From: an uncultured virus (IMG/VR IMGVR_UViG_3300035670_000180)
Taxonomy: Duplodnaviria > Heunggongvirae > Uroviricota > Caudoviricetes
Direction: 5' to 3' (one strand)
Virus record (IMG/VR): IMGVR_UViG_3300035670_000180
DNA: 64,000 bases
The notes below the pieces were generated by a model that was not told the origin of the DNA, searched no databases, and saw only the letters and a program-made list of their open reading frames with translations. Numbering within the stretch: position 1 is the first letter of the stretch; every line of letters begins with the position of its first letter. Both the position numbers and the translations under genes were made by a program. This document shows positions 2,497 to 54,874 of the stretch, in pieces.

Positions 2497-4125
2497 ATGA
2501 CGATATCGATCCGGCTTACCGCTGCGTTCCAGAGGATCGCGACCGAGTTCCGCGCGGTCCGCACTCTGATCGGAGGCTCGGCAACGGCCGATGCTTCGGC
2601 GCTCCAGACGAGCGCGACCAACCTTGTTGACGCGATCAACGAGGTCCGGGCCATTGGCTTGTCCAAGGCCGCCATCGACGATGTGAACCTTTCCGCATTG
2701 GCGGTATGGTCGTCGCAGAAAACGTCGGCAGAAATCCAGGCTGCTGTCGCCGCCCTGGTCAATGGCGCCCCTGACGCCCTCAACACGCTGCAAGAGCTCG
2801 CGGCGGCGATGGGCGAGGACGCCAACCTCCAGCAGACGCTGCTGGCTGCAATTGGCGAGAAAGCAAACGCGGTCGACGTCTACACGAAGGTCGAGGTCGA
2901 TGCGGCCATTGCGGCTATCCCGCCTTACGTGCTGCCGACCGCGACGACTGATGTGCTTGGCGGCGTGACGGTGGACGGCACCACCATCGCCGTGAGCGCG
3001 GACGGCATCCTGAGCATTGCTCCAGACACGAGCGAGGGCGGCGGCTCGGACGGATCTTATCGCGGGTTTACCGGCTCGGTGAACCGCTTGTGGGGCAACG
3101 ATCCGAGCGTCAATCAGATCATCATCACGTCATCGCCGACCGCCTCGTTCTTCAACGAGACCGCGACCGTTGCGAACGACGATTTCACTGTCGGCGACCT
3201 GTCTCCGGGCGCGACCGTGGCGATGGTCAACCTCTACGGCGCGACGAGCATCGACGGCCTCCCGCTGCCCGCGATCACGACCTTCTTCCAACACTTCATC
3301 GACCGCGTCATGTACGACGGGAACACGCTGGTCTCGGATGCGGCGACGATCAAGAGCCGCTTCGAGGCAGAGATCGAGGGCCTTGTTGCGGAACTGCCCG
3401 CTGGCGCGCTGTACGAGAATTTCCAGTTCTTCACCGACCCACGCCTGTTCAGACCTCCATACACAACTACGGGCGTAGGCACCGGCCCCATTGATGTGTG
3501 GTACTACCCCTCGATGGGGCAGTGGAGGGCTCAAATCAGCAACGCCGCTATTGCGACCGGATGGCAGCAGACTGATCAGGTGACGATCAGCGGCGCCGAC
3601 CTTGGTGGGCTGACACCGCAACACGACCTCACGCTGACATTCCAGTCGGCGCTGTCGTTTGGCTGGTTCTTCAATCTCACGTGGGCATCGGGTAGCCCGC
3701 CGCAGGTTCTGGGAGGTTTCCCCGGATACTCCATCACGGATGGCGGCGGCGATCAGTACAACGACGGCAACTACATCGCGACTTCGATCAACTCCGAGGT
3801 GCCGTACAACTCTGGCATCGTGTCCCCCGGCGAGGATGCCTTCGGCGCCGGGTCTGAATATGTGGTCCTCTACCGAAACGCCGTCTGGGCCATGGTCGCG
3901 CTGAACACCAACGTCGGGTACGTCAAATACGACGGTCGGTTCGGGTCTGATAGCTCTGGCACTAAGGTCGTCGCCACGCTGGTCTCCGCTGGCGGGTCAG
4001 TCCTGCCCTACAACAACGCGCAGATTTCCGGGCTGATCGAGGCCGCCGTGTCGCCGGTCCAGACCGAGATCAGCGCTGTTACGTCCGCTGATTACGTGGC
4101 CGTGTTCGAGGCATCCATCGCCTGA
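2497..4125 (+). CDS. Virion fibre-like protein, paralogue family member 1
   Basis: N-terminal EFRxxR...NLVDAINEVR...VWSSQKT...NGAPDALNTLQELA module shared with three other ORFs; ends DYVAVFEASIA. Start chosen by alignment to paralogues. Confidence 0.65.
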   Translation: MTISIRLTAAFQRIATEFRAVRTLIGGSATADASALQTSATNLVDAINEVRAIGLSKAAIDDVNLSALAVWSSQKTSAEIQAAVAALVNGAPDALNTLQELAAAMGEDANLQQTLLAAIGEKANAVDVYTKVEVDAAIAAIPPYVLPTATTDVLGGVTVDGTTIAVSADGILSIAPDTSEGGGSDGSYRGFTGSVNRLWGNDPSVNQIIITSSPTASFFNETATVANDDFTVGDLSPGATVAMVNLYGATSIDGLPLPAITTFFQHFIDRVMYDGNTLVSDAATIKSRFEAEIEGLVAELPAGALYENFQFFTDPRLFRPPYTTTGVGTGPIDVWYYPSMGQWRAQISNAAIATGWQQTDQVTISGADLGGLTPQHDLTLTFQSALSFGWFFNLTWASGSPPQVLGGFPGYSITDGGGDQYNDGNYIATSINSEVPYNSGIVSPGEDAFGAGSEYVVLYRNAVWAMVALNTNVGYVKYDGRFGSDSSGTKVVATLVSAGGSVLPYNNAQISGLIEAAVSPVQTEISAVTSADYVAVFEASIA

Positions 4126-4218
4126 GCAAGCAGTCTGATCGCATAGACCAACGATCCCTCAAGCGCAGCGTCATCTAGAAGACGGCGCTGCAATCTACCT
4201 AAGCAAGGAACTCCCCAA

Positions 4219-5310
4219 ATGACGATGGCAACTAACCTCATCGCCGCATTCCAGCGGGTCGGCGCTGAGTTTCGCTCCCTTCGCACGCTGATCGGCGGCT
4301 CTGCGACTTCGGATGTCGCGGCGCTCCAGACGACGGCCTCGAACCTCGTCGATGCGATCAACGAAGTCCGCGCAATTGGTCTGTCCAAGGCTGCAATCGA
4401 TGATGCCAACCTGTCTGGGTTGGCGGTGTGGTCGTCCCAGAAGACGTCGGATGAGATTCAGGCCGCCGTTGCCGCGCTGGTCAATGGCGCCCCCGGCGTG
4501 CTGGATACGCTGCAAGAGCTGGCCGCAGCCCTTGGCAACGATCCCGACCTCCAGGGAAACCTGCTGGCCGCGATCAGCCAGAAAGCTGACGCAGCTAACG
4601 TCTACACGAAGGTCGAGTCCGACCTCCTCATTTCCGATGCCGCGCGGCTTCAGGGCGTTCGGGTCATCGCATCGACGGATGCCTCCGTCTATGCTGACAG
4701 CTCGGTCCCGCCCCAGGCCGATCCCAGTGGCGCTGGCGGCTGGTACTTCCGCAACGACGCCCCGTCGACCAAGATCAACTGGTATCCGTATGCGGGCGTC
4801 GGCTCGCAGGTACTCGGCGACATCACCTCGATCTACATGGTCGTGACGTTCGCGAGTATCGCGAGCCTGCCGTTCATCGGCATCTACACGAAAAAGACCG
4901 GCACCGGCGATGCTGGTAGCTGGTATCGCTCGCGGATCGTGTACGAGTCGTTCTCGTCCCCGCCCCAGGTCGGCACCACGTACCTCGTGTATTGGGGCGT
5001 CGATCCTGGCGTGTATCCCGAGCTGCCGCGCCTCAACATCACGGGCACGCAGGCGGCCAACTCGATTGGCCCGCGTGCGCCGACCGAGGAAATCCTCACG
5101 TATTCGTGGGGCACGAACAGCGGCGCGGCTGTCGGCAACGTCCAGATGACCGCCCGCGAGATGGGCCACCGGATCGCTGGCATCGCCACGGCGTGCCCGC
5201 TCGTCCATGTCGGCGCCAGCGCGGCGCAGTTCCAGGCCGTCAACACCGAAGTGACCGGCGCGGCCAATACGGACTACGAGGCCGTGTTCGTTACCGCGCT
5301 CTCTGCCTAA
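4219..5310 (+). CDS. Virion fibre-like protein, paralogue family member 2
   Basis: First ~130 aa nearly identical to 2497..4125, different central domain, ends DYEAVFVTALSA; RBS AAGGA. Confidence 0.7.
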   Translation: MTMATNLIAAFQRVGAEFRSLRTLIGGSATSDVAALQTTASNLVDAINEVRAIGLSKAAIDDANLSGLAVWSSQKTSDEIQAAVAALVNGAPGVLDTLQELAAALGNDPDLQGNLLAAISQKADAANVYTKVESDLLISDAARLQGVRVIASTDASVYADSSVPPQADPSGAGGWYFRNDAPSTKINWYPYAGVGSQVLGDITSIYMVVTFASIASLPFIGIYTKKTGTGDAGSWYRSRIVYESFSSPPQVGTTYLVYWGVDPGVYPELPRLNITGTQAANSIGPRAPTEEILTYSWGTNSGAAVGNVQMTAREMGHRIAGIATACPLVHVGASAAQFQAVNTEVTGAANTDYEAVFVTALSA

Positions 5311-5413
5311 GCTCGGATGGCGGTGATGGTCTCCCGGCCATCACCGTCTACCGCTGCAACGGCGAGTTGATCGTTGCTCGGCTTGAATGCCGGGCGCACT
5401 CGCGGAGTCTTTC

Positions 5414-5869
5414 ATGTCCCTTGCGACCCGTATCACATCGCTGGCCCAATCCATCGCCAGCGAGACACGGTCTATCCGTCGATCCGTATTCGGCGGCGAG
5501 ACGGCGTCCGCATCGTGGCTCGATACGGATGCCAAGAATGTCGTCGGCGCGATCAACGAAGTGCGGCGCGCGGTCATCCCAACGATTGAGATCGCGGCGA
5601 ACGGCTCGCATGCTGTCTTGTGGGCTCCGGCGATAGTGCTCTGCGACGTTTCAAGCGGTCCGGTCGTCATTTCGATCCCGGCATCGGGCCGCGTCTCTCT
5701 GATCATCACGGGCGGCGATCCATCGATCAGCAACGTCACGCTGACGAATAGCTCGGCCAAATTCAACGGGCAGCCCGGTCCCTACGTCATCAGCAGCGCG
5801 GCATTCGCGCGGTACGATTTCGAGTTCATCAACGCGACTTATGGGTTCTCCATCATCCGCAACGCATGA
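5414..5869 (+). CDS. Virion protein, paralogue family member 3
   Basis: MSLATRITSLAQSIASETRSIRR...KNVVGAINEVR matches the family N-terminus; RBS GGAG before ATG 5414. Confidence 0.6.
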   Translation: MSLATRITSLAQSIASETRSIRRSVFGGETASASWLDTDAKNVVGAINEVRRAVIPTIEIAANGSHAVLWAPAIVLCDVSSGPVVISIPASGRVSLIITGGDPSISNVTLTNSSAKFNGQPGPYVISSAAFARYDFEFINATYGFSIIRNA

Positions 5870-5875
5870 GGCGCC

Positions 5876-6760
5876 ATGTCTTTCGAGATCGTGCTGAGCG
5901 CCACGCTCCGTGAGGAGAGCGGCGAAGTTCAGCCTGTAGGCGGCCCGTTCCGGCGTGGCCGCTTTTCTTTTTCGGATCACCCCGATGATCCTGGCGGCCG
6001 GACGATGATGGGCATCATCCAGCGCGAGTACGACGACTTCCGCGCGGCACGTAAGCAGCCCGCGATGGATGTCGCGATGATCACCGACCATGAAGTCCTC
6101 GACATCTATCGGGACAGCTATTGGACCCCGGTCCAAGGCGATGCGCTCCCGCCCGGCATCGACTTGGCTGTCTTTGATTTCGGCGTCAATTCCGGGCCGG
6201 TGACGGCTATCAAGAAGCTGCAATCCGCGCTGGGCGTCGTGCCCGATGGGCATATCGGCGTGCGCACGAAACGCGCCCTGGCCGAATGCGACCCCGTCTC
6301 GGTCGTCACGTCTCTGATGCAACTGCGGCGCGACTATTGCCGGTCGCTCCGCAACTATCCCAGCTTCAAGAATGGCTGGGAGAAGCGGTGGGATCGGATC
6401 GAGAAGATCGCGTTGCGCATGGCTACGGTGCCGGACGCGCCGCAGCCCATGCCGGTGACGGAGCGCGTTATCGATCCGCCTGTGGCGGTGAAGGCCATCG
6501 ACGCCCCGCCATCGCGCATGTCGCAGTCCGATACGGGCAACGCGGCCCTGATCGGCGGCGGATCGGGACTGGCGAGCATCGGCACGTCCGTGGCGAAGGC
6601 TGCGGGCGAGCTTATGTCTGCGGGCAAGCCGGTGTCGTTCCCGGTGCTCATCGTCGAGGCGGCGTCGAAGGAACTCTTCTGGCTCGGCATCGCGGCGTTC
6701 GCGTCGTGCGTTTTCATCTGGTCCGAGCGCCGCCGCAAGCTAAGGATGCACCACCATTGA
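5876..6760 (+). CDS. Endolysin, glycoside hydrolase family 108 with peptidoglycan-binding domain and hydrophobic C-terminus
   Basis: DHPDDPGGRTMMGI, YW, FDFGVNSGP, DGHIGVRT and FKNGWEKR motifs typical of GH108; upstream of spanins. Confidence 0.85.
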   Translation: MSFEIVLSATLREESGEVQPVGGPFRRGRFSFSDHPDDPGGRTMMGIIQREYDDFRAARKQPAMDVAMITDHEVLDIYRDSYWTPVQGDALPPGIDLAVFDFGVNSGPVTAIKKLQSALGVVPDGHIGVRTKRALAECDPVSVVTSLMQLRRDYCRSLRNYPSFKNGWEKRWDRIEKIALRMATVPDAPQPMPVTERVIDPPVAVKAIDAPPSRMSQSDTGNAALIGGGSGLASIGTSVAKAAGELMSAGKPVSFPVLIVEAASKELFWLGIAAFASCVFIWSERRRKLRMHHH

Positions 6761-30829: not shown

Positions 30830-31615
30830 CTAGACACGCGCCGCCTCCTGCTTGTTGCGAGCGGAATGCCGCGCGATACCGGGTATGCCCGCCTCGATGG
30901 CCTCGTAGCTGACGGCGCCGACCGGGTCCGAAAGGCCGTAAGGGTTGATCTCGATGAGCGTAAACTTCTGCAACTCGCAGAACAGGTCGACGACGACCGT
31001 GTCTCGCGGCAGGTGCGGCCCGACGACGTCGAGGACGTAGCGCTCGGCATTGGTTCGCAATTCTTCGTCGCTCTCGCGCGGGAACCGAAGCGTGGGCCCG
31101 TGCCCGTACTCCGCGACTGCCTTGACCACGCCGTTCTTTACGAACACGCGCAGTTCCCAACTCGGCGTGCACCCGTAGAGCACGTCTCTGAGGCAAAGCA
31201 CCGGCTTTACGTCGGCGCGCGCGAACCGCGTGAGGTCGTCCAGCATCCGCTCGCTGCCGCGCATCACCCACAACATCGTGCGTCCCGAGCACGAGACCAG
31301 CGCCTTCAGCGGCCACATCCAGTCCTTTGGAGACCTGCTGTTGAGGCGGAAGAATTTGAGATCCCAGCCGCACGCGCGATCAATCTCTGATGCGAACCGT
31401 TCGGCGGTATCCGACCAGCCGGTCTCCTCCTCCTGCCACCACTCGCGGGCGAGTTCCATGGGGAACTCCAGGAACGTGGTCGGGGCAGATAGCGCGAGCA
31501 GGCCGGGCGACCACTTGTCGATCAGAAGCGGCTCCATGATGCTCTGCCATTGGAGCGCGGATGCCCGCAGTTCCTCGTCGGTTGGTTCCTTGAACACGAT
31601 GTCTACCTTCCGCAA
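30830..31615 (-). CDS. Cdc123/D123-like ATP-grasp protein
   Basis: FFRLNSRSPKD, ELRVFV, VVDL and LIEINPYG motifs; RBS AAGGAG. Confidence 0.7.
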   Translation of the reverse strand: MRKVDIVFKEPTDEELRASALQWQSIMEPLLIDKWSPGLLALSAPTTFLEFPMELAREWWQEEETGWSDTAERFASEIDRACGWDLKFFRLNSRSPKDWMWPLKALVSCSGRTMLWVMRGSERMLDDLTRFARADVKPVLCLRDVLYGCTPSWELRVFVKNGVVKAVAEYGHGPTLRFPRESDEELRTNAERYVLDVVGPHLPRDTVVVDLFCELQKFTLIEINPYGLSDPVGAVSYEAIEAGIPGIARHSARNKQEAARV

Positions 31616-31735
31616 GTCTCTCTCCTTTTGCGCTTGAGTTGGCCCGGCGGGTCGCCGCGCATGACGCCCGCCGGGCAGGGGCCGCCAGATGCGCCCTACG
31701 GCCCCAGAAGCCAGCCCCGTTGCAGGGGCTGGAAC

Positions 31736-31942
31736 CTACTTCGCGCGCTTTCTGATTTGCTCGGCAATGCCCTTGGCGACGACCGCCAAGGCGTGCTCGC
31801 CGCGATCAGAAAGGAAGGCCGCCGCATCGTCAGCGATGGCCGCGCACGCATCGCGCTCCGCCTTTGCAACAGTTGCGATTGCTAGATCGGCGAGCCAATT
31901 GGCGGCGCGCTCCTCAAGGCTGGGCTCCAGATCAACGCGCAT
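31736..31942 (-). CDS. Hypothetical protein
   Basis: [11 protein letters not shown]...IAEQIRKR motif frequent in small phage proteins. Confidence 0.55.
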
Positions 31943-32294
31943 CGACCGCCTCCAGCGCTGCTTCTGGATATATCTGCACCGACCCAGGTTCGCGCTCGCT
32001 CTCGACCGCATAGCCGACTGGCGTCAGTTCCGTCGAATAGACGCCGACGACGCGGCCATGCCAGGACGAGCCCTTCGTCTTGCGGACGCGCTGGCCGAGC
32101 GCGAATTTCCTGCCCTCGCCCGATAGCCAGAATGCCTTCTCCGCCTCAAGTTCCTGCATGGCCGACAACGTCTTCCGCCACCAATAGTCGTGGTGGCTCT
32201 TGAGCACGAGGCCGTGCGCGCTATCCATGTTTGCGGTTTGCATGGCGACGACGATTTCTTCGCAGGCCTGCTGGAACGTCTTTCTGTCTTCCAT
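31932..32294 (-). CDS. dfrB: DfrB / R67-type dihydrofolate reductase homologue with N-terminal extension
   Basis: [52 protein letters not shown] closely matches the R67 SH3-like core including VQIY. Confidence 0.85.
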
Positions 32295-32313
32295 GATATC
32301 CCCCGACGCAGCT

Positions 32314-33231
32314 TTAAGCCGCGACCTCCTGATGCCTGACCGCCGTCTCGCGCTGCATGAAGCGCACGTCCGCCCAGGGGTCCTGCTGCTCAATGTCGTC
32401 GATCATGTCGACGCGGCGGCGCCACTCCACCCACATCTGCCGAAGCAATTCCTTGCCCATGATGCGGCGCGCTTGATAGTGGGCGCCCTTCCAGAGCTTC
32501 TCGCCAGCAGCGATGCGCGCCTCACGCTTGGCCCTCTCGCGCATGTAGATGTCGCCAAACTCATTGATGGACGCGCGCGGCTGGTCTTCCTTTTCCCCGG
32601 TGATCGATAGCCGCAGGACGGTGTCCTCGATCATGTACATCACGGCGCGGCGGCGCGGGACGTAGCCTTGGGGGATCGCATCGTCACCCTTGATACGCCG
32701 TTGCGCAGCACCGTTGAGCACCGCGAGCCCCATGCGCTTCCAGACGCGCGACGGCGTGGCGTAATTCGAGAGGTTGCCAGTTTCGGCCAGGATCAGACCC
32801 GCCTGCGTGTGGGAGAATCCCGTCACGGTGTCGACCCACGGCGCAATTGGCAACGTCTTCGCGAGCCGTCCTATGTCCGCGTCGATCCGCTCGCGTTTCT
32901 TGGCAACGTCGTTGATGTTGCGCGCGATGATGTCGATGGCGGCCCGAGCGTGCCCGTCTCCGCCTTCCTTGCTGCCCTTCTTGATCCGCTCGGCCATTGC
33001 CAGCGCCATCGTCTTGATCTTCTCGCGGACCTTCATGGCTTTGGCTTTTTGCTTGTCGGTCATGTCCTGCGTGATGACCGATGCGGCTGCGAGCGCGGGA
33101 TTCTCGTTCAGGATGAAGCCGCGACACACGGCTGTGATCCTGTTCGAGCTGGCCGTTGTGTGCTTGATCAGAATGTTACGCTCACGGGCAAGGTCGGCCA
33201 TCGCTGTGATGGTGGCGTTGATGTGGTCCAT
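32314..33231 (-). CDS. tasA: Nop-domain (IS110-related) RNA-binding protein without nuclease domain, TasA-like
   Basis: Coiled-coil N-half, then WVDTVTGFS...[14 protein letters not shown]...VWKRMGL...G..QRR..G...Y and [18 protein letters not shown]; no DEDD/RuvC or HNH domain; RBS AAGGA; directly downstream of a dual-spacer array. Confidence 0.8.
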
Positions 33232-33253
33232 TTGGGTTCCTTGTTGGAGAAGG

Positions 33254-33522
33254 GCGACCGGCACGGCATCTCAGGGTTTCAAGTGGCATCAGGCCGGTCG
33301 TTTGGTGGGGCTCGGCAGCGACGGTTAGGGTTTCACGTTGGTCCAGGCCGAGCTTTCTTTTGGTGGTGGCGACCGGCAAGACGATAAAGGGTTTCATACT
33401 GGTACAGGCCGGTCGTTTGGTGGGGCTCGGCACCGCGATAGAGTGTTTCACGTGCGGGCAGGCCGAGCTTTGAGGACGGGCGGCAGACGCATTCAGGTTT
33501 TCACGATGTTCCGGGCCGCCCG
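33254..33522 (-). ncRNA. TIGR-like stem-loop guide array 1 (5 units)
   Basis: Each unit on the minus strand: 7-8-bp stem, CT, 9-nt spacer, TGAAACCCT, 9-nt spacer, T, stem; spacers all different. Confidence 0.85.
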
Positions 33523-33528
33523 GTTCTG

Positions 33529-34119
33529 CTACTCCGCAGCCTGAAGCAATGGCGCTTCCCCGCCTTGGAATTTCCTCACGTACAGCCGCGCCAGATCGGC
33601 CTCGGTCCAAGCATCGGCAACGGTCTGATCGCTGCCGAGCCTGATCGCGATGTCCCGCAGATACCCGGCCTGCTGCTGGTAGGTGCGCCCAACGGTCTCG
33701 CGGCGGCTGGCAATGTCGAGGACTTGGTCGCGCGTCATGCCGTAGAGCGGGGCACCGTCGAATGCCATCATCAAGTACGGGCCGTATTCGCGGAGAATCT
33801 TGGCCCGCTCCGCAACACGCCCTCGCGTGGCCTCCATCTGGCCGCGCAGTATCGCCTCTTGTCGACGCCGAGCGATCTCGCGTGGCGCTGCTGTCATGCC
33901 GTCACGGGCAGCCACGATTGCATCACGGCGATGATCCCGTTCGATGCGGTTCAGCCGCTCCATGACGAATGCCTCGAGCGCCCACCGGGTTAGGGTCACG
34001 TCGCCGATCATCTCCGCTGCAACACGAGACGCGATGGCCGCGTCCTCTTGTGGCTGGATCGCCAGATGCTTCGCGATGAGGCTCGACAGGACTTCGGACG
34101 GGTTCGTGGTCGGTTTCAT
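33529..34119 (-). CDS. Hypothetical protein embedded between the two guide arrays
   Basis: 196 aa, helical, Arg-rich; RBS GAGGA. Confidence 0.75.
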   Translation of the reverse strand: MKPTTNPSEVLSSLIAKHLAIQPQEDAAIASRVAAEMIGDVTLTRWALEAFVMERLNRIERDHRRDAIVAARDGMTAAPREIARRRQEAILRGQMEATRGRVAERAKILREYGPYLMMAFDGAPLYGMTRDQVLDIASRRETVGRTYQQQAGYLRDIAIRLGSDQTVADAWTEADLARLYVRKFQGGEAPLLQAAE

Positions 34120-34146
34120 GTTGATTTCCTCGTTGGTTCAAGAAGG

Positions 34147-34362
34147 GCGACCGGCAGCTCGGTGTAGGGTTTCAAGCAAGTACAGGCCGGTCGTTCGGTG
34201 GGGCTCGGCACAGTTTCGAAGGGTTTCATATGCCCGCAGGCCGAGCTTTCTGTTGGTGGTGGCGACCGGCACACCGATCCAGGGTTTCAGGTGGTCCTAG
34301 GCCGGTCGTTCGGTGGGGCTCGGCACCTCCGGGGAGGGTTTCAAGGGACAGGCAGGCCGAGC
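34147..34362 (-). ncRNA. TIGR-like stem-loop guide array 2 (4 units)
   Basis: Same stems, loop and linkers as array 1, with different spacers. Confidence 0.85.
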
Positions 34363-34383
34363 CGTCTCGTTCGCTGCTGCTTG

Positions 34384-34833
34384 TTATCCGTCCTCGACGA
34401 TCCGCACGTCCGGCTCATGCAAGACGACCGGGACGCCTGCCTCGCCGAACATGAGCCGAGCCGCGTCGAACTCCTCTGGCGGCATGCGCGTGGTGCCGTT
34501 GCCGACATGGATGCGAGCGATGCCCGCCTGGATCATCGTGCGGGCGCATGACGAGCACGGGTGGTGCGTGCAGTAGACGGCCTTGCCTGCCGTCCTGACG
34601 CCCTCGCGAGCCGCGAAGGCAATCAGGTTCGCCTCCGCATGGCTGGCGAAGAGATACTTCGCCGGACGCTCGAACCTGTCCGGGGTGTCCGCAACGCCGC
34701 GAGGCGGGCCGTTGTAGGCCGTCAGGATCACGACGTTGCCATCGCCCACAAGGACGGCGCCGACCTTCGTGCTGTCCTTCGACTTGCTCGCGACGTGGGC
34801 TGCAAGGCTCATGATGTGCTCTCCCCAGCTCAT
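34384..34833 (-). CDS. dCMP deaminase
   Basis: SKDSTKVGA, YNGPPRG, HAEAN and PCSSC zinc motifs. Confidence 0.9.
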   Translation of the reverse strand: MSWGEHIMSLAAHVASKSKDSTKVGAVLVGDGNVVILTAYNGPPRGVADTPDRFERPAKYLFASHAEANLIAFAAREGVRTAGKAVYCTHHPCSSCARTMIQAGIARIHVGNGTTRMPPEEFDAARLMFGEAGVPVVLHEPDVRIVEDG

Positions 34834-35111
34834 GCCCGTGCTGTCCTGTCGATTGCGTGCTGCAGCGCCGCGATGCGCTGGGCGATCACCGCCCGCTCGG
34901 CGCGCAACGCTGCGATCTCCGCCGACCATTCGCCCGCCTTGTCGGCATCTGCCGGTCCGATGCTGCGCAGGTAGGATGGATCGAATACGTCCCCTGGCTG
35001 CTCGGCGGTGCGCGTCACGATGGCGGCCGCGATGGCCTTGGATCGGCATCGCTTGATGCGCTCGAAGGCCGAGCGCAGAACCTCTTTGACGGTATCTCTA
35101 TTGGTCGACAC
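34830..35111 (-). CDS. Hypothetical protein
   Basis: Coupled ORF with coiled-coil C-terminus; GTG start inferred. Confidence 0.5.
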   Translation of the reverse strand: MSTNRDTVKEVLRSAFERIKRCRSKAIAAAIVTRTAEQPGDVFDPSYLRSIGPADADKAGEWSAEIAALRAERAVIAQRIAALQHAIDRTARA

Positions 35112-35334
35112 GGATGATGCTCCGGGCTTGAAAGCGTTCGATTTTGTCCGACTCCGGGAACACAACGCTGACAACGCCACGTGCAACTCTGACTACGACT
35201 CCTTGCTTCCCGCGCATCGGGTTAGCCGACCTGCTGGGAATCTTGACGCGATCCCCGACCTTGACCGCCGAGGCGGCGATCCAGTTCTCGACGTCACCGT
35301 GCGATGGGGTGTTGGTGATCTTGATGCCCGACAT
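35098..35334 (-). CDS. Small KOW/SH3-like protein
   Basis: VKVGDRVKI...GKQGVVVRV motif. Confidence 0.5.
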   Translation of the reverse strand: MSGIKITNTPSHGDVENWIAASAVKVGDRVKIPSRSANPMRGKQGVVVRVARGVVSVVFPESDKIERFQARSIIRVDQ

Positions 35335-35342
35335 GGCGCCCC

Positions 35343-35576
35343 CTAGATCGCGCCGCCGCAATGCGGGCAGGACTGGTGGTTGATGCGGATCGCTCGCGCA
35401 AAGTACTTGCTGCGAGAGATGTGACCCTCGCGCTCGAGGGCGCCGAGAATGCGATGCACCGCAGACTTGCTCGCCAGACCCATGCCCTGGCGCAGCTCCT
35501 CGAACGACGGCGACACGCCATCCGCCCTGATCCGCTCGTCGATGATCGAGAGCATACGCCGCTGCTGCTTCGTCAT
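35343..35576 (-). CDS. LexA-like winged-helix DNA-binding domain only
   Basis: MTKQQRRML...GVSPSFEEL...GLASKSAVHRILGALEREGHI...ARAI, ending CPHC; no peptidase domain. Confidence 0.8.
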   Translation of the reverse strand: MTKQQRRMLSIIDERIRADGVSPSFEELRQGMGLASKSAVHRILGALEREGHISRSKYFARAIRINHQSCPHCGGAI

Positions 35577-35685
35577 TGCCCGCCCCCGATGTGCGCCAGG
35601 ATCGCCCCGCCCGTGCCGATCAACGTCGCGATGAAGCTCACTGTCGCCAGCATGACGACCCATGCGATGATTGAGTTGAGCGCCT

Positions 35686-36084
35686 TCACGGCTTGCCCCT
35701 TGTCCCGAAAGTCCTGATCCTGAGCATTGACGATGCCATCGCCCGTGCTCCCCCACGCAGGAACGCTCGATACAACTCACTTGCGATTTCGTGCGGATCG
35801 AGCCCGCGCGATTTCCAGAAGGCGATGGTCCCGACCCGGTGCTCGGCATCGGGGCCTTCGCGATGGCATGAGGAGCAGAGCGGCACCGCCCAGGCGTCAC
35901 TCGGCTTCTCGGCGCCTCCGGCTCCTGTGCGGATGCCTGTCGCCTTAGTCCAATCGATGCGGGTCACGCGGATGTGCGCCGCTTCGATGTTCTGGCTGCT
36001 GCCGCACGTCACGCAGACCATCTCGTGCAGTGCGGTGAGGTACGCCCGATCACGGGCGCGCGGGTTCTTAGTGGATGAGAGCAT
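35686..36084 (-). CDS. DUF968-like / HNH-like zinc-binding protein
   Basis: CVTCG...AAHIR...KPSD.W.VPLC..CH motif. Confidence 0.7.
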   Translation of the reverse strand: MLSSTKNPRARDRAYLTALHEMVCVTCGSSQNIEAAHIRVTRIDWTKATGIRTGAGGAEKPSDAWAVPLCSSCHREGPDAEHRVGTIAFWKSRGLDPHEIASELYRAFLRGGARAMASSMLRIRTFGTRGKP

Positions 36085-53374: not shown

Positions 53375-53512
53375 CCAGCCCCGCTTTCTGTTCAGCTAAC
53401 GTCGTATTTTCTGGTTGTAGTCTGGTTCTGGCTGCACCAGGAAGTTGCGCTCGCCGCCACGGGCGCCAGCATTGGGATAAGCAACTCAAGCAACTAGAGG
53501 ATGTGCTGGGGG

Positions 53513-54874
53513 ATGGCCGCCAAGCCGCAGAAAAAGCCGACAAAGACGAGCAAACCGACGAAGGCGAAGCCTGCCGAAAAGCAGGACGCCATCGCGCAGC
53601 CACAACCTATCGGCGAGAAGCACGTCGAATGGACGTGGCTGCCAATCGATGATGTTCGGCCGTATGAGCGCAACGCGCGCGTGCATTCGCCTGCACAGAT
53701 CGAGCAGATCAAGGCATCGCTCGACACGTTCGGCTGGCAGAACGCCATCCTCGTCGATGCGAACCGCGTTGTGATCGCTGGGCATGGCCGCCTCGAGGGC
53801 GCTCGCGCTCGCGGCGACAAGGTCGTCCCGGTCGTCGTTGCCACCGATCTCGACGAGATGCAGGTCAGGCTCTACCGGCTGGCGGACAACAAGATCGCCC
53901 TCAACAGCGCGTGGGACGAGGACCTTCTCTCTGCTGAGATGACCGACCTTGCTGCCCTTGATCTCAACTTGAACGTCACGGGGTTCGACGGTCTGGAGCT
54001 CGACAAGCTCCTCACGCATTTCCTCGGCGACGACGGTGGCGGCATGACCGACCCCGACGAGGCGCCGGAGCCGCAGCCTAATCCGGTGACGGTGCCGGGC
54101 GACATATGGCTGCTCGGCTCCCACCGCATCATCTGCGGAAGTTCGACCGACGCCGCGACGGTTGCTGCCGTCCTTGCAGGGGCAAAGCCGCATCTGATGG
54201 TGACGGACCCTCCGTATGGGGTCGAGTATGATCCTGATTGGAGAAACAAAGCCGAACGGGCCAACGGCAAGAAGATAGGTGCCAAAGCTGTCGGCGTCGT
54301 TTCAAACGACGACAAGGCCGACTGGCGCGAGGCGTGGGCGCTTTTCCCCGGCGATGTAGCCTACGTCTGGCATGCCGGAAACAAGGCAGACATCGTCGCA
54401 CGCAGCTTGAACGAATGCCGCTTTGCGATTCGCGCCCAAATTGTCTGGGCGAAGAATCAGCTTGTGATCGGGCGTGGCGACTACCACCCGAAGCACGAGC
54501 CGTGCTGGTACGCCGTCCGCGACGGCAAGACGGGCCATTGGAACGGCGACCGCAAGCAGACGACGCTCTGGGAAATAGACAAGCCGCGCAAGAGCGAGAC
54601 GGGGCACAGTACGCAGAAGCCTGTCGAGTGCATGCTGCGACCGATCCGCAACAACAGCCAGCCGGGCGATGCGGTCTATGAGCCGTTCTCCGGGTCAGGA
54701 ACGACAATCATCGCCGCCGAGATGTCCAAGCGGCGGTGCCACGCCGTGGAGCTGAACCCGGCTTACGTCGATGTGGCGGTCAAGCGCTGGCAAGAGTTCA
54801 CCGGCCAGGAAGCGGTCCACGAAAAGTCTGGCGCGACATTCGCCGCCATCCAGGCCATGCGAAAGGCAGCATAA
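53513..54874 (+). CDS. ParB-domain-fused DNA N6/N4 methyltransferase
   Basis: PYERNARVH...IAGHGR ParB domain; TDPPY, HSTQKPV, EPFSGSGTT motifs. Confidence 0.92.
   Translation: MAAKPQKKPTKTSKPTKAKPAEKQDAIAQPQPIGEKHVEWTWLPIDDVRPYERNARVHSPAQIEQIKASLDTFGWQNAILVDANRVVIAGHGRLEGARARGDKVVPVVVATDLDEMQVRLYRLADNKIALNSAWDEDLLSAEMTDLAALDLNLNVTGFDGLELDKLLTHFLGDDGGGMTDPDEAPEPQPNPVTVPGDIWLLGSHRIICGSSTDAATVAAVLAGAKPHLMVTDPPYGVEYDPDWRNKAERANGKKIGAKAVGVVSNDDKADWREAWALFPGDVAYVWHAGNKADIVARSLNECRFAIRAQIVWAKNQLVIGRGDYHPKHEPCWYAVRDGKTGHWNGDRKQTTLWEIDKPRKSETGHSTQKPVECMLRPIRNNSQPGDAVYEPFSGSGTTIIAAEMSKRRCHAVELNPAYVDVAVKRWQEFTGQEAVHEKSGATFAAIQAMRKAA

Follow-up and report, generated by a model that had tools for sequence, protein, structure and literature searches.

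A candidate accessory protein family encoded beside tas in stem-loop TIGR-TasA loci of phages

An ORF of 196 aa lying between two guide arrays of an uncultured phage belongs to a family whose gene is found beside tas in most related phages. Hence, the family is probably a working part of the TIGR-TasA system, one that is absent from the published descriptions covered here. The ORF was studied in a window of 64,000 nucleotides (the whole stretch of DNA analysed, IMG/VR record IMGVR_UViG_3300035670_000180). The reading that we consider rather likely is that of a real gene from a fast-evolving, all-helical family, which forms a fixed two-gene module with tas and whose product is a dedicated, non-catalytic accessory or adaptor of TasA.

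On the minus strand, four stem-loop guide units (34363-34149) precede the 196-aa ORF (34119-33529), which is followed by five units (33521-33256) and by the tas gene (33231-32314). The first-pass annotation had proposed this order (array 2, 196-aa ORF, array 1, tasA-like gene), and both the ORF calls and the parsing of the units bear it out. The minus-strand genes around the module all read in one direction. According to Pfam, they include RecT (37720-36734), a weak DUF968/HNH-like ORF located between RecT and a LexA-type DNA-binding ORF (35576-35343), a dCMP deaminase (34833-34384), a homologue of the R67-type dihydrofolate reductase (32285-31932) and, downstream of the latter, a D123-like ORF, all on the minus strand. 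The genes are tightly packed and the arrays abut those on either side: array 2 starts 21 nt past the stop of the dCMP deaminase and ends 30 nt ahead of the ATG of the 196-aa ORF, and array 1 starts 7 nt past the stop of this ORF and ends 25 nt ahead of the tas ATG. A scan of positions 31600-35700 found no promoter-like sites and two terminator-like sites, both outside the module, and Rfam had no match in 32000-35000. IMG/VR also has a 47-kb contig identical to the window sequence. The R67/DfrB-type homologue immediately downstream of tasA matches Pfam DHFR_2 (E 2.8e-24) and NCBIfam trim_DfrB (92.5 bits, under the cut-off of 137), with a match confined to its C-terminal 55 residues, and sits with the dCMP deaminase in a phage nucleotide-metabolism cluster.

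The arrays of the window are predicted from their sequence to be stem-loop TIGR arrays, with nine tandem units that each have two 10-nt segments around UGAAACCC and stems that are 100% paired. Array 2 (34149-34363, minus strand; RNA fold z -2.4) is the 5' leader of the 196-aa ORF and was parsed by script into units at 34363-34318, 34307-34264, 34246-34203, and 34192-34149. Array 1 (33256-33521, minus strand; RNA fold z -3.2) lies between the ORF and tasA, with units at 33521-33478, 33468-33425, 33414-33371, 33353-33310, and 33299-33256. Each unit consists of an 8-bp stem, 10 (once 11) variable nucleotides, UGAAACCC in one of two variants, 10 variable nucleotides, a U, and the 3' arm of the stem. 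A repeat search identified a 38-nt core eight times and a 104-nt two-unit module four times, with a period of 115 nt. The stems alternate between GCUCGGCC and GACCGGCC, giving the 115-nt two-unit module, and the first unit of array 1 has the stem GGGCGGCC in place of the alternating pair. The linkers CCCACCRAA and CACCACCAAMAGAAA are found in both arrays, and the last unit of each is followed by the flank CCCUUCU (CCCTTCT, that is AGAAGGG on the other strand), at 34141-34147 for array 2, where it contains a CUU motif, and at 33248-33254 for array 1. It had been claimed that the arrays share stems, linkers, and the flank AGAAGGG, and that their spacers all differ: all these motifs are present, and 18 of 18 variable segments are distinct.

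Stem pairing was scored at 7 pairs per unit in the 9 units of the window and in 12 units of the relative L002, a metagenome contig (21 in total). All the 147 stem cells were paired, and 3 of the 7 pairs had changes on both sides (23 cells; AU/CG/GC and CG/UA/GC). This covariation score was reached by none of 500 shuffles, and controls with slid partners paired at 45% or less. L002 has the order array, ORF, array, tasA of the window, the same alternating stems, and a unit with a GGGCGGC stem directly past the stop of the ORF, as in the window. Its spacers are entirely different, none being shared with the window. The duplication of the scaffold is old: in this relative, whose ORF is 61% identical, arrays already flank the ORF on either side. 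Most of the ORF that precedes the module in L002 (269-961, plus strand) is made of a short peptide repeated in tandem (GNARVFGNA-like), and the repeat also gives rise to ORFs in other frames; this preceding ORF is unrelated to the dCMP deaminase that occupies this position in the window.

We searched 726,639 bases for targets of the spacers, taking spacer A and the reverse-complemented spacer B joined in either order and with gaps of 0-4 nt. There were two matches with at most one mismatch, which is not significant given the approximately 0.4 expected by our own estimate. The only near-match within the window is to the joined pair of unit 33353-33310, at 54145-54163 in a 457-aa ORF (53501-54874, plus strand). 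It has one mismatch in spacer A, a 2-nt gap, and an exact match to the reverse complement of spacer B, and is not significant given the search space.

The gene that follows array 1 (32314-33231, minus strand) encodes a protein of 305 aa, which the first-pass annotation took for a Tas protein. Profile matches agree in identifying it as a predicted Nop-domain Tas protein. The match to the NCBIfam profile NF052498, 'TIGR-Tas system RNA-guided endonuclease', has an E of 3.8e-18 over profile positions 5-215 of 215, at 66 bits and thus below the cut-off of 100. The structure 9MTY, recorded as a TasR RNP, was matched at E 0.0027 with the single Tas sequence and at E 2.4e-9 with a 7-sequence profile of the Tas family (residues 112-268 on 154-291). 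The protein also matches phrog_4285, and has no match in Pfam. Neither RuvC nor HNH was found in it with Pfam, PHROGs, or NCBIfam, and the alignment with TasR, which covers residues 112-268 of the Tas protein, begins after the N-terminal part of TasR. Since no nuclease domain was detected, we read the protein as TasA-like. Its start is the ATG at 33231, which has an AAGGA site and agrees with the N-termini of the homologues. A GTG at 33264 was rejected as the start, given its position inside the last unit of array 1.

The 196-aa ORF (33529-34119, minus strand) starts with an ATG, has a Shine-Dalgarno sequence GAGGA at 34127-34131, and is the founding member of an unnamed helical family of approximately 160-200 aa, a candidate accessory of TasA. 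It is a real protein-coding gene under purifying selection. Compared with its homologue in L002 (61% identical, same layout), it has a dN of 0.35 and a dS of 1.30 (ratio 0.27), the values for tasA being 0.17 and 0.82 (ratio 0.20). Its closest relatives are two proteins with 73% and 61% identity (of 992 candidates, 3 reached E≤0.001, the sequence of the window itself included). The profile of these three close sequences, searched against 1.84 billion representatives, retrieved 21 proteins at E≤0.001, 3 of them at ≤1e-10. All 21 have lengths within 163-211 aa, and they have in common a C-terminal motif that reads roughly L..MT..qLL.aA.rR......A.FLR.vA..L.dgQTVaDvWte.eL..L. The family evolves fast, with a mean pairwise distance of 0.80 vs. 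0.65 for Tas. As had been suspected, it falls in no recognised family: none of 23 members had a Pfam match at 0.01, PHROGs gave just three isolated single-member matches to these 23 (E 0.0012-0.0085), and the ORF itself had no match in Pfam, PHROGs, NCBIfam, or PADLOC. The ESM Atlas returned no usable match for the family sequences P0001 and P0015, none of 68 pattern matches was confirmed in a profile search of genome contigs with the ORF alignment, and hhalign found no relation between the alignments of the ORF family (A6) and of TasA (A7). Fused or longer forms were not found among the 8000 candidates scored, which is weak evidence.

The association of the family with tas was quantified starting from the Tas side. 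Relatives of the TasA alignment were found in 62 IMG/VR and 5 genome loci, which makes 66 once the window's own contig is removed. The un-iterated family profile matched an ORF at E≤1e-3 in 38 of these 66 loci. After three iterations on the ORFs of these loci, it matched 57 of the 66 at E≤1e-5, always with one ORF per locus, a count obtained with a profile trained on the very loci that it scores and to be read next to the un-iterated figure. Profile drift would not yield a single match per locus at a constant position, and all 57 members are encoded on the strand of tas and directly upstream of it, the gap ranging from -1 to 860 nt (median 199). The nine loci without a clear family member count against a partner of Tas: in five, an ORF does occupy the position but has a marginal E of 2.7e-4 to 0.042, three have no such ORF, and one has no upstream DNA. 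From the side of the ORF, a Tas protein is also encoded in 12 of 16 non-self loci. These are L002, L074, and the 10 of 10 loci obtained with alignment A8, which lie on contigs already returned by the Tas-side search; the other four loci are L070-L073.

Gene order in related phages is shared by descent, which is a further point against reading the association as a partnership. We dereplicated the loci at less than 90% Tas identity, which left 41, the window's own contig and L002 included, and compared the proteins encoded within 3 kb of the module on each flank. Among the 820 pairs of loci, 64 had similarity upstream, 17 downstream, 16 on both flanks, and 750 had none, so that the 41 loci represent 21 distinct flanking contexts. 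The distance matrices of the family and of Tas are correlated over 38 loci (Spearman 0.48, with 0 of 999 permutations as high), a correlation that would also come from simple co-inheritance. The gene-neighbourhood test that had been proposed for a partner was thus strongly positive, with the association present in 57 of 66 loci and 21 unrelated contexts. Judged by these comparisons, the family keeps its association with tas and with guide units in phage contexts that are unrelated to one another.

The link to guide units is apparent from their density, which we measured with a simple hairpin-plus-loop-motif detector in 41 loci and in that of a Rhizobium phage described below (L075). Between the family gene and the conserved core of tas there are 7.17 units/kb in sense and 0.34 in antisense. 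The 500 nt upstream of the family gene have 2.66 (antisense 0.67), the 500 nt downstream of tas 1.97 (antisense 0.75), and the rest of the loci 0.83 (antisense 0.79). Units are not enriched inside the family gene (1.08/kb in sense vs. 0.82 in antisense). The sandwich arrangement, defined by at least three units ahead of the family gene, is also found in L002, L031, L040, L041, L051, L054, and L056. In L004, at least three hairpin units (4930-5320, loops TGTTGCCC and TGTTAACC) lie within the tas reading frame, and three further ones separate the family gene from tas. Units inside tas are also described by Xu et al. (bioRxiv 10.64898/2026.09.09.750476).

A few relatives are particularly informative. 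L074 (3956-6170) is a canonical dual-repeat TIGR locus, in which the family member (identical to P0030) comes first, and then, in this order, a dual-repeat TIGR array, a Tas protein of 339 aa that passes the NF052498 cut-off (130 bits), and a second array. These arrays, one between the genes and one downstream of Tas, have a period of 36 nt, with 10-nt repeats (GAATGAACTG / GAYAGAACTG) and 8-nt spacers. Because a family member occurs in a dual-repeat locus, the link between the family and Tas spans both classes of arrays. On the other hand, the four near-identical loci L070-L073 have a family member but no detectable Tas, the next gene encoding an uncharacterised protein of 252 aa, which counts against a partner of Tas. 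In L070, as in L071-L073, the region 3692-6300 contains this 252-aa ORF (4280-5038) and then a stretch of approximately 1.2 kb that is poor in ORFs (5040-6300), just upstream of the terminase genes. The stretch is rich in strongly strand-biased CGAC(T), with 34 CGAC vs. 2 GTCG, or 27/kb vs. 12/kb elsewhere in the locus, and may represent a repeat array of a different type, or else repeats of a packaging site. A jackhmmer search with the ParB domain of L070 returned L070-L073 only.

These four loci are what one would expect if the family were a passenger, an early phage gene like any other, functionally unrelated to tas and found beside it by inherited gene order only. The ORF has no known domain, and in the window the module is set amid early DNA-metabolism genes (RecT, dCMP deaminase, R67-type DHFR), both of which are also consistent with a passenger. 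Yet, in the 750 of 820 pairs of loci that lack any similarity in their flanks, the two genes are still adjacent, co-oriented, and in the same order, the linkage extends to the distant dual-repeat clade of Tas, and guide units are found on both sides of the family gene. We consider such a passenger improbable.

The only match among 50,697 phage records is in Rhizobium phage RHph_X2_25 (MW960032.1, 23652-25718), a cultured temperate phage of Sinorhizobium americanum. Its family member QWY83252.1 (199 aa, un-iterated profile E 3.4e-10) is encoded upstream of guide units and of the Tas-like QWY83253.1. The complete order is a divergent CI-type repressor, one unit, QWY83252.1, about five units, QWY83253.1, two units, and a convergent XRE gene. 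The module is thus flanked by the annotated 'repressor protein C' and by an XRE regulator, in the immunity region, a position that may point to a part in the control of lysogeny or in superinfection exclusion.

What kind of protein the family encodes was assessed from its predicted structure and its conservation. A first AlphaFold2 model built from 3 sequences was poor (pLDDT 62). A second, from 67 sequences, was confident, with a pLDDT of 88.4 and a pTM of 0.50, and is described as all-helical. In this model, a three-helix N-terminal part is followed by a long helical hairpin (41-72, 81-112) and by a C-terminal domain made of a small beta-hairpin and three helices. No known fold was recognised: Foldseek gave no match in the PDB at E≤0.001, the wide VIA-align search found generic helices only (best Z 5.1), the best BFVD matches were uncharacterised phage proteins of 166-190 aa (best E 0.048), and the family profile found nothing among all PDB sequences (best E 0.016, a stathmin-like helix). 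The description 'Arg-rich' does not extend to the family, where the pI spans 5.1-10.7. Among the 67 sequences, no column is invariant and the conserved ones are nearly all in the hydrophobic core. The complete set of polar residues kept in more than half of the sequences is R64 (75%), T129 (73%), and D25, D40, R101, and R155 (approximately 51-54% each). The family alignment has no catalytic constellation of His, Asp, Glu, Ser, or Cys, and the 196-aa ORF shows neither the catalytic residues nor a known catalytic fold of a nuclease, RNase, or adaptation enzyme. Since the conserved positions are nearly all hydrophobic, we conclude that it is probably not a nuclease. The pattern of conservation fits a predicted binding or scaffold protein, not an enzyme.

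These results bear on the suggestion that the ORF encodes the nuclease effector that TasA would need, or else a spacer-rewriting enzyme. In favour of it, TasA lacks a nuclease, the spacers were completely turned over between the window and L002 with the scaffold kept, and no adaptation machinery is known according to Xu et al. (bioRxiv 10.64898/2026.09.09.750476). However, the 67 sequences lack any acidic, His, or Ser constellation and have no invariant column, and no nuclease, polymerase, or integrase family or fold was matched with Pfam, PHROG, NCBIfam, PADLOC, Foldseek, VIA-align, or the PDB profile search, which makes an effector or rewriting enzyme highly improbable. Of the earlier proposal of a partner or effector, the partner therefore stands, and it is well supported by comparative genomics (57 of 66 loci, 21 contexts), whereas the nuclease effector and the spacer-diversification enzyme are not supported, as the polar residues show no catalytic pattern of conservation, the best polar columns being R64 and T129.

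A second alternative is a helper in the biogenesis or assembly of the guides: the protein would bind the precursor transcript that also carries its own gene, and aid a host RNase in cutting at the CUU motif of the stem base or load stem-loop tigRNAs onto TasA. Such a helper would make up for the Y/H self-processing loop that, according to Xu et al., is missing in stem-loop Tas proteins. The same authors find that stem-loop tigRNAs are processed at boundaries bearing a CUU motif, report that extended flanks sharpened processing, and leave open both the 'auxiliary factors' for the processing of stem-loop guides and adaptation (bioRxiv 10.64898/2026.09.09.750476). In the window, the gene lies within the predicted array transcript and both arrays end with CCCUUCU just ahead of a ribosome-binding site, and across the loci the density of units is raised on either side of the family gene. 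However, cloned stem-loop loci are processed in E. coli (PMC12045711; bioRxiv 10.64898/2026.09.09.750476), and the family also occurs with a dual-repeat Tas in L074, a class that processes its own guides according to Faure et al. (PMC12045711) and Xu et al. (bioRxiv 10.64898/2026.09.09.750476). Moreover, the family has no conserved catalytic residues, so that a helper would at most be a chaperone or an adaptor. We regard a biogenesis helper as unlikely, although worth keeping in mind.

We prefer an adaptor or co-repressor over a biogenesis helper, a ranking that we infer from two observations: the family is also found beside a dual-repeat, presumably self-processing Tas, and published TasA proteins bind DNA without a partner. 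PlTasA, FpTasA, and the Minisyncoccota TasA are reported to bind DNA and to repress or activate reporters in the absence of any accessory protein (bioRxiv 10.64898/2026.09.09.750476; 10.64898/2026.08.11.744272), so that a partner is not generally required for DNA binding, a point that counts against the accessory reading as such. The adaptor would work as follows. The module, with the family gene, the stem-loop guide units, and tas in this order on one strand, would most likely be expressed as one transcript, and the 196-aa protein would act as an adaptor with the TasA-tigRNA complex. Its conserved C-terminal domain (approximately residues 115-186) would make a conserved contact, and the variable N-terminal helical hairpin could provide self-association or a lineage-specific contact. 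The adaptor may then modulate the outcome of DNA binding by the apparently nuclease-less TasA; it could, e.g., stabilise a roadblock to transcription or replication, or bring in a host factor. When TasA (A7) and the ORF (A6) were co-folded, the score was 0.00 in a run without controls, which speaks neither for nor against binding.

If one goes further and supposes that the family is an auxiliary component needed in the native host, either for the maturation or loading of hairpin guides at CUU or for the in-place renewal of paired spacers, which we find doubtful, then TIGR-TasA would be a multi-protein and not a single-effector system. TIGR-Tas has been presented so far as a single-protein system for RNA-guided DNA targeting. 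The function of phage TasA, the maturation of stem-loop guides, and the renewal of spacers are stated open questions, and a second protein is a candidate for each of them. The presence of the module in the cultured temperate phage RHph_X2_25 makes genetic tests possible. In terms of annotation, the recurrent 'hypothetical protein' beside tas becomes a marker of this clade of TIGR systems.

The module has a conceptual likeness to the box C/D sRNP, in which Nop5 has the partner proteins L7Ae and fibrillarin, both of alpha/beta folds. In both cases, a Nop-domain protein would be the scaffold for a guide RNA, with the output coming from separately encoded partners. The 196-aa ORF differs from L7Ae and fibrillarin in that it resembles neither in sequence or fold, its model is all-helical, and it has no methyltransferase signature. 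Faure et al. compare Tas with PDB 3PLA (PMC12045711).

The only published precedent for a partner of Tas is TasParB. Apart from it, Faure et al. state that TasA has no 'clear associations with other proteins' (PMC12045711), which counts against the partner proposed here. HHpred relates TasParB to ParB, and its gene forms an operon with tasA in which dual-repeat arrays lie between the two genes and on either side of them (PMC12045711). The locus of the 196-aa ORF resembles these operons, and the proposed adaptor would parallel them: a small accessory gene is predicted to be operonic with a tasA in which no nuclease domain was detected, and arrays lie upstream, downstream, and between the genes. 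One may thus ask if the ORF is the TasParB of Faure et al. 2025 and has already been described, the more so as the 10-nt repeats of the dual-repeat array in L074 agree with what is described for TasParB (PMC12045711). However, TasParB and the family differ in that the latter has mostly stem-loop arrays, an all-helical model, and no ParB signal in our tests. Pfam found no ParB in 23 members at 0.01, nor in 10 members even at E≤10, the family profile found none among all PDB sequences (the best match being the stathmin-like helix), and hhalign against one ParB-domain protein gave a probability of 0.1%. There was also no ParB among the Foldseek matches or the best 50 VIA-align matches listed, and the word 'ParB' is absent from the four supplements of Faure et al. 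that were covered. That the family is TasParB is quite improbable.

The closest published systems are the other stem-loop TIGR-TasA. No description of the family was found by full-text search in the literature on TIGR-Tas, TasA, and tasParB. Those parts of the PlTasA preprint that were covered make no mention of accessory genes (bioRxiv 10.64898/2026.08.11.744272), and the Tas and ORF peptides of the window had no match among the listed entries of the published Table S1. The published stem-loop systems and the window have in common a Nop-domain Tas in which no nuclease is recognised, hairpin units with two short variable segments around a conserved loop, split sub-arrays, units upstream of, downstream of, or inside tas, a CUU at the base of the stem, and a phage host. 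Faure et al. 2025 already describe stem-loop arrays with sub-arrays several hundred nucleotides apart (PMC12045711). What sets the window apart from them is that its 'gap' of approximately 600 nt between sub-arrays is a conserved coding gene, and one that recurs beside tas in most relatives of this clade.
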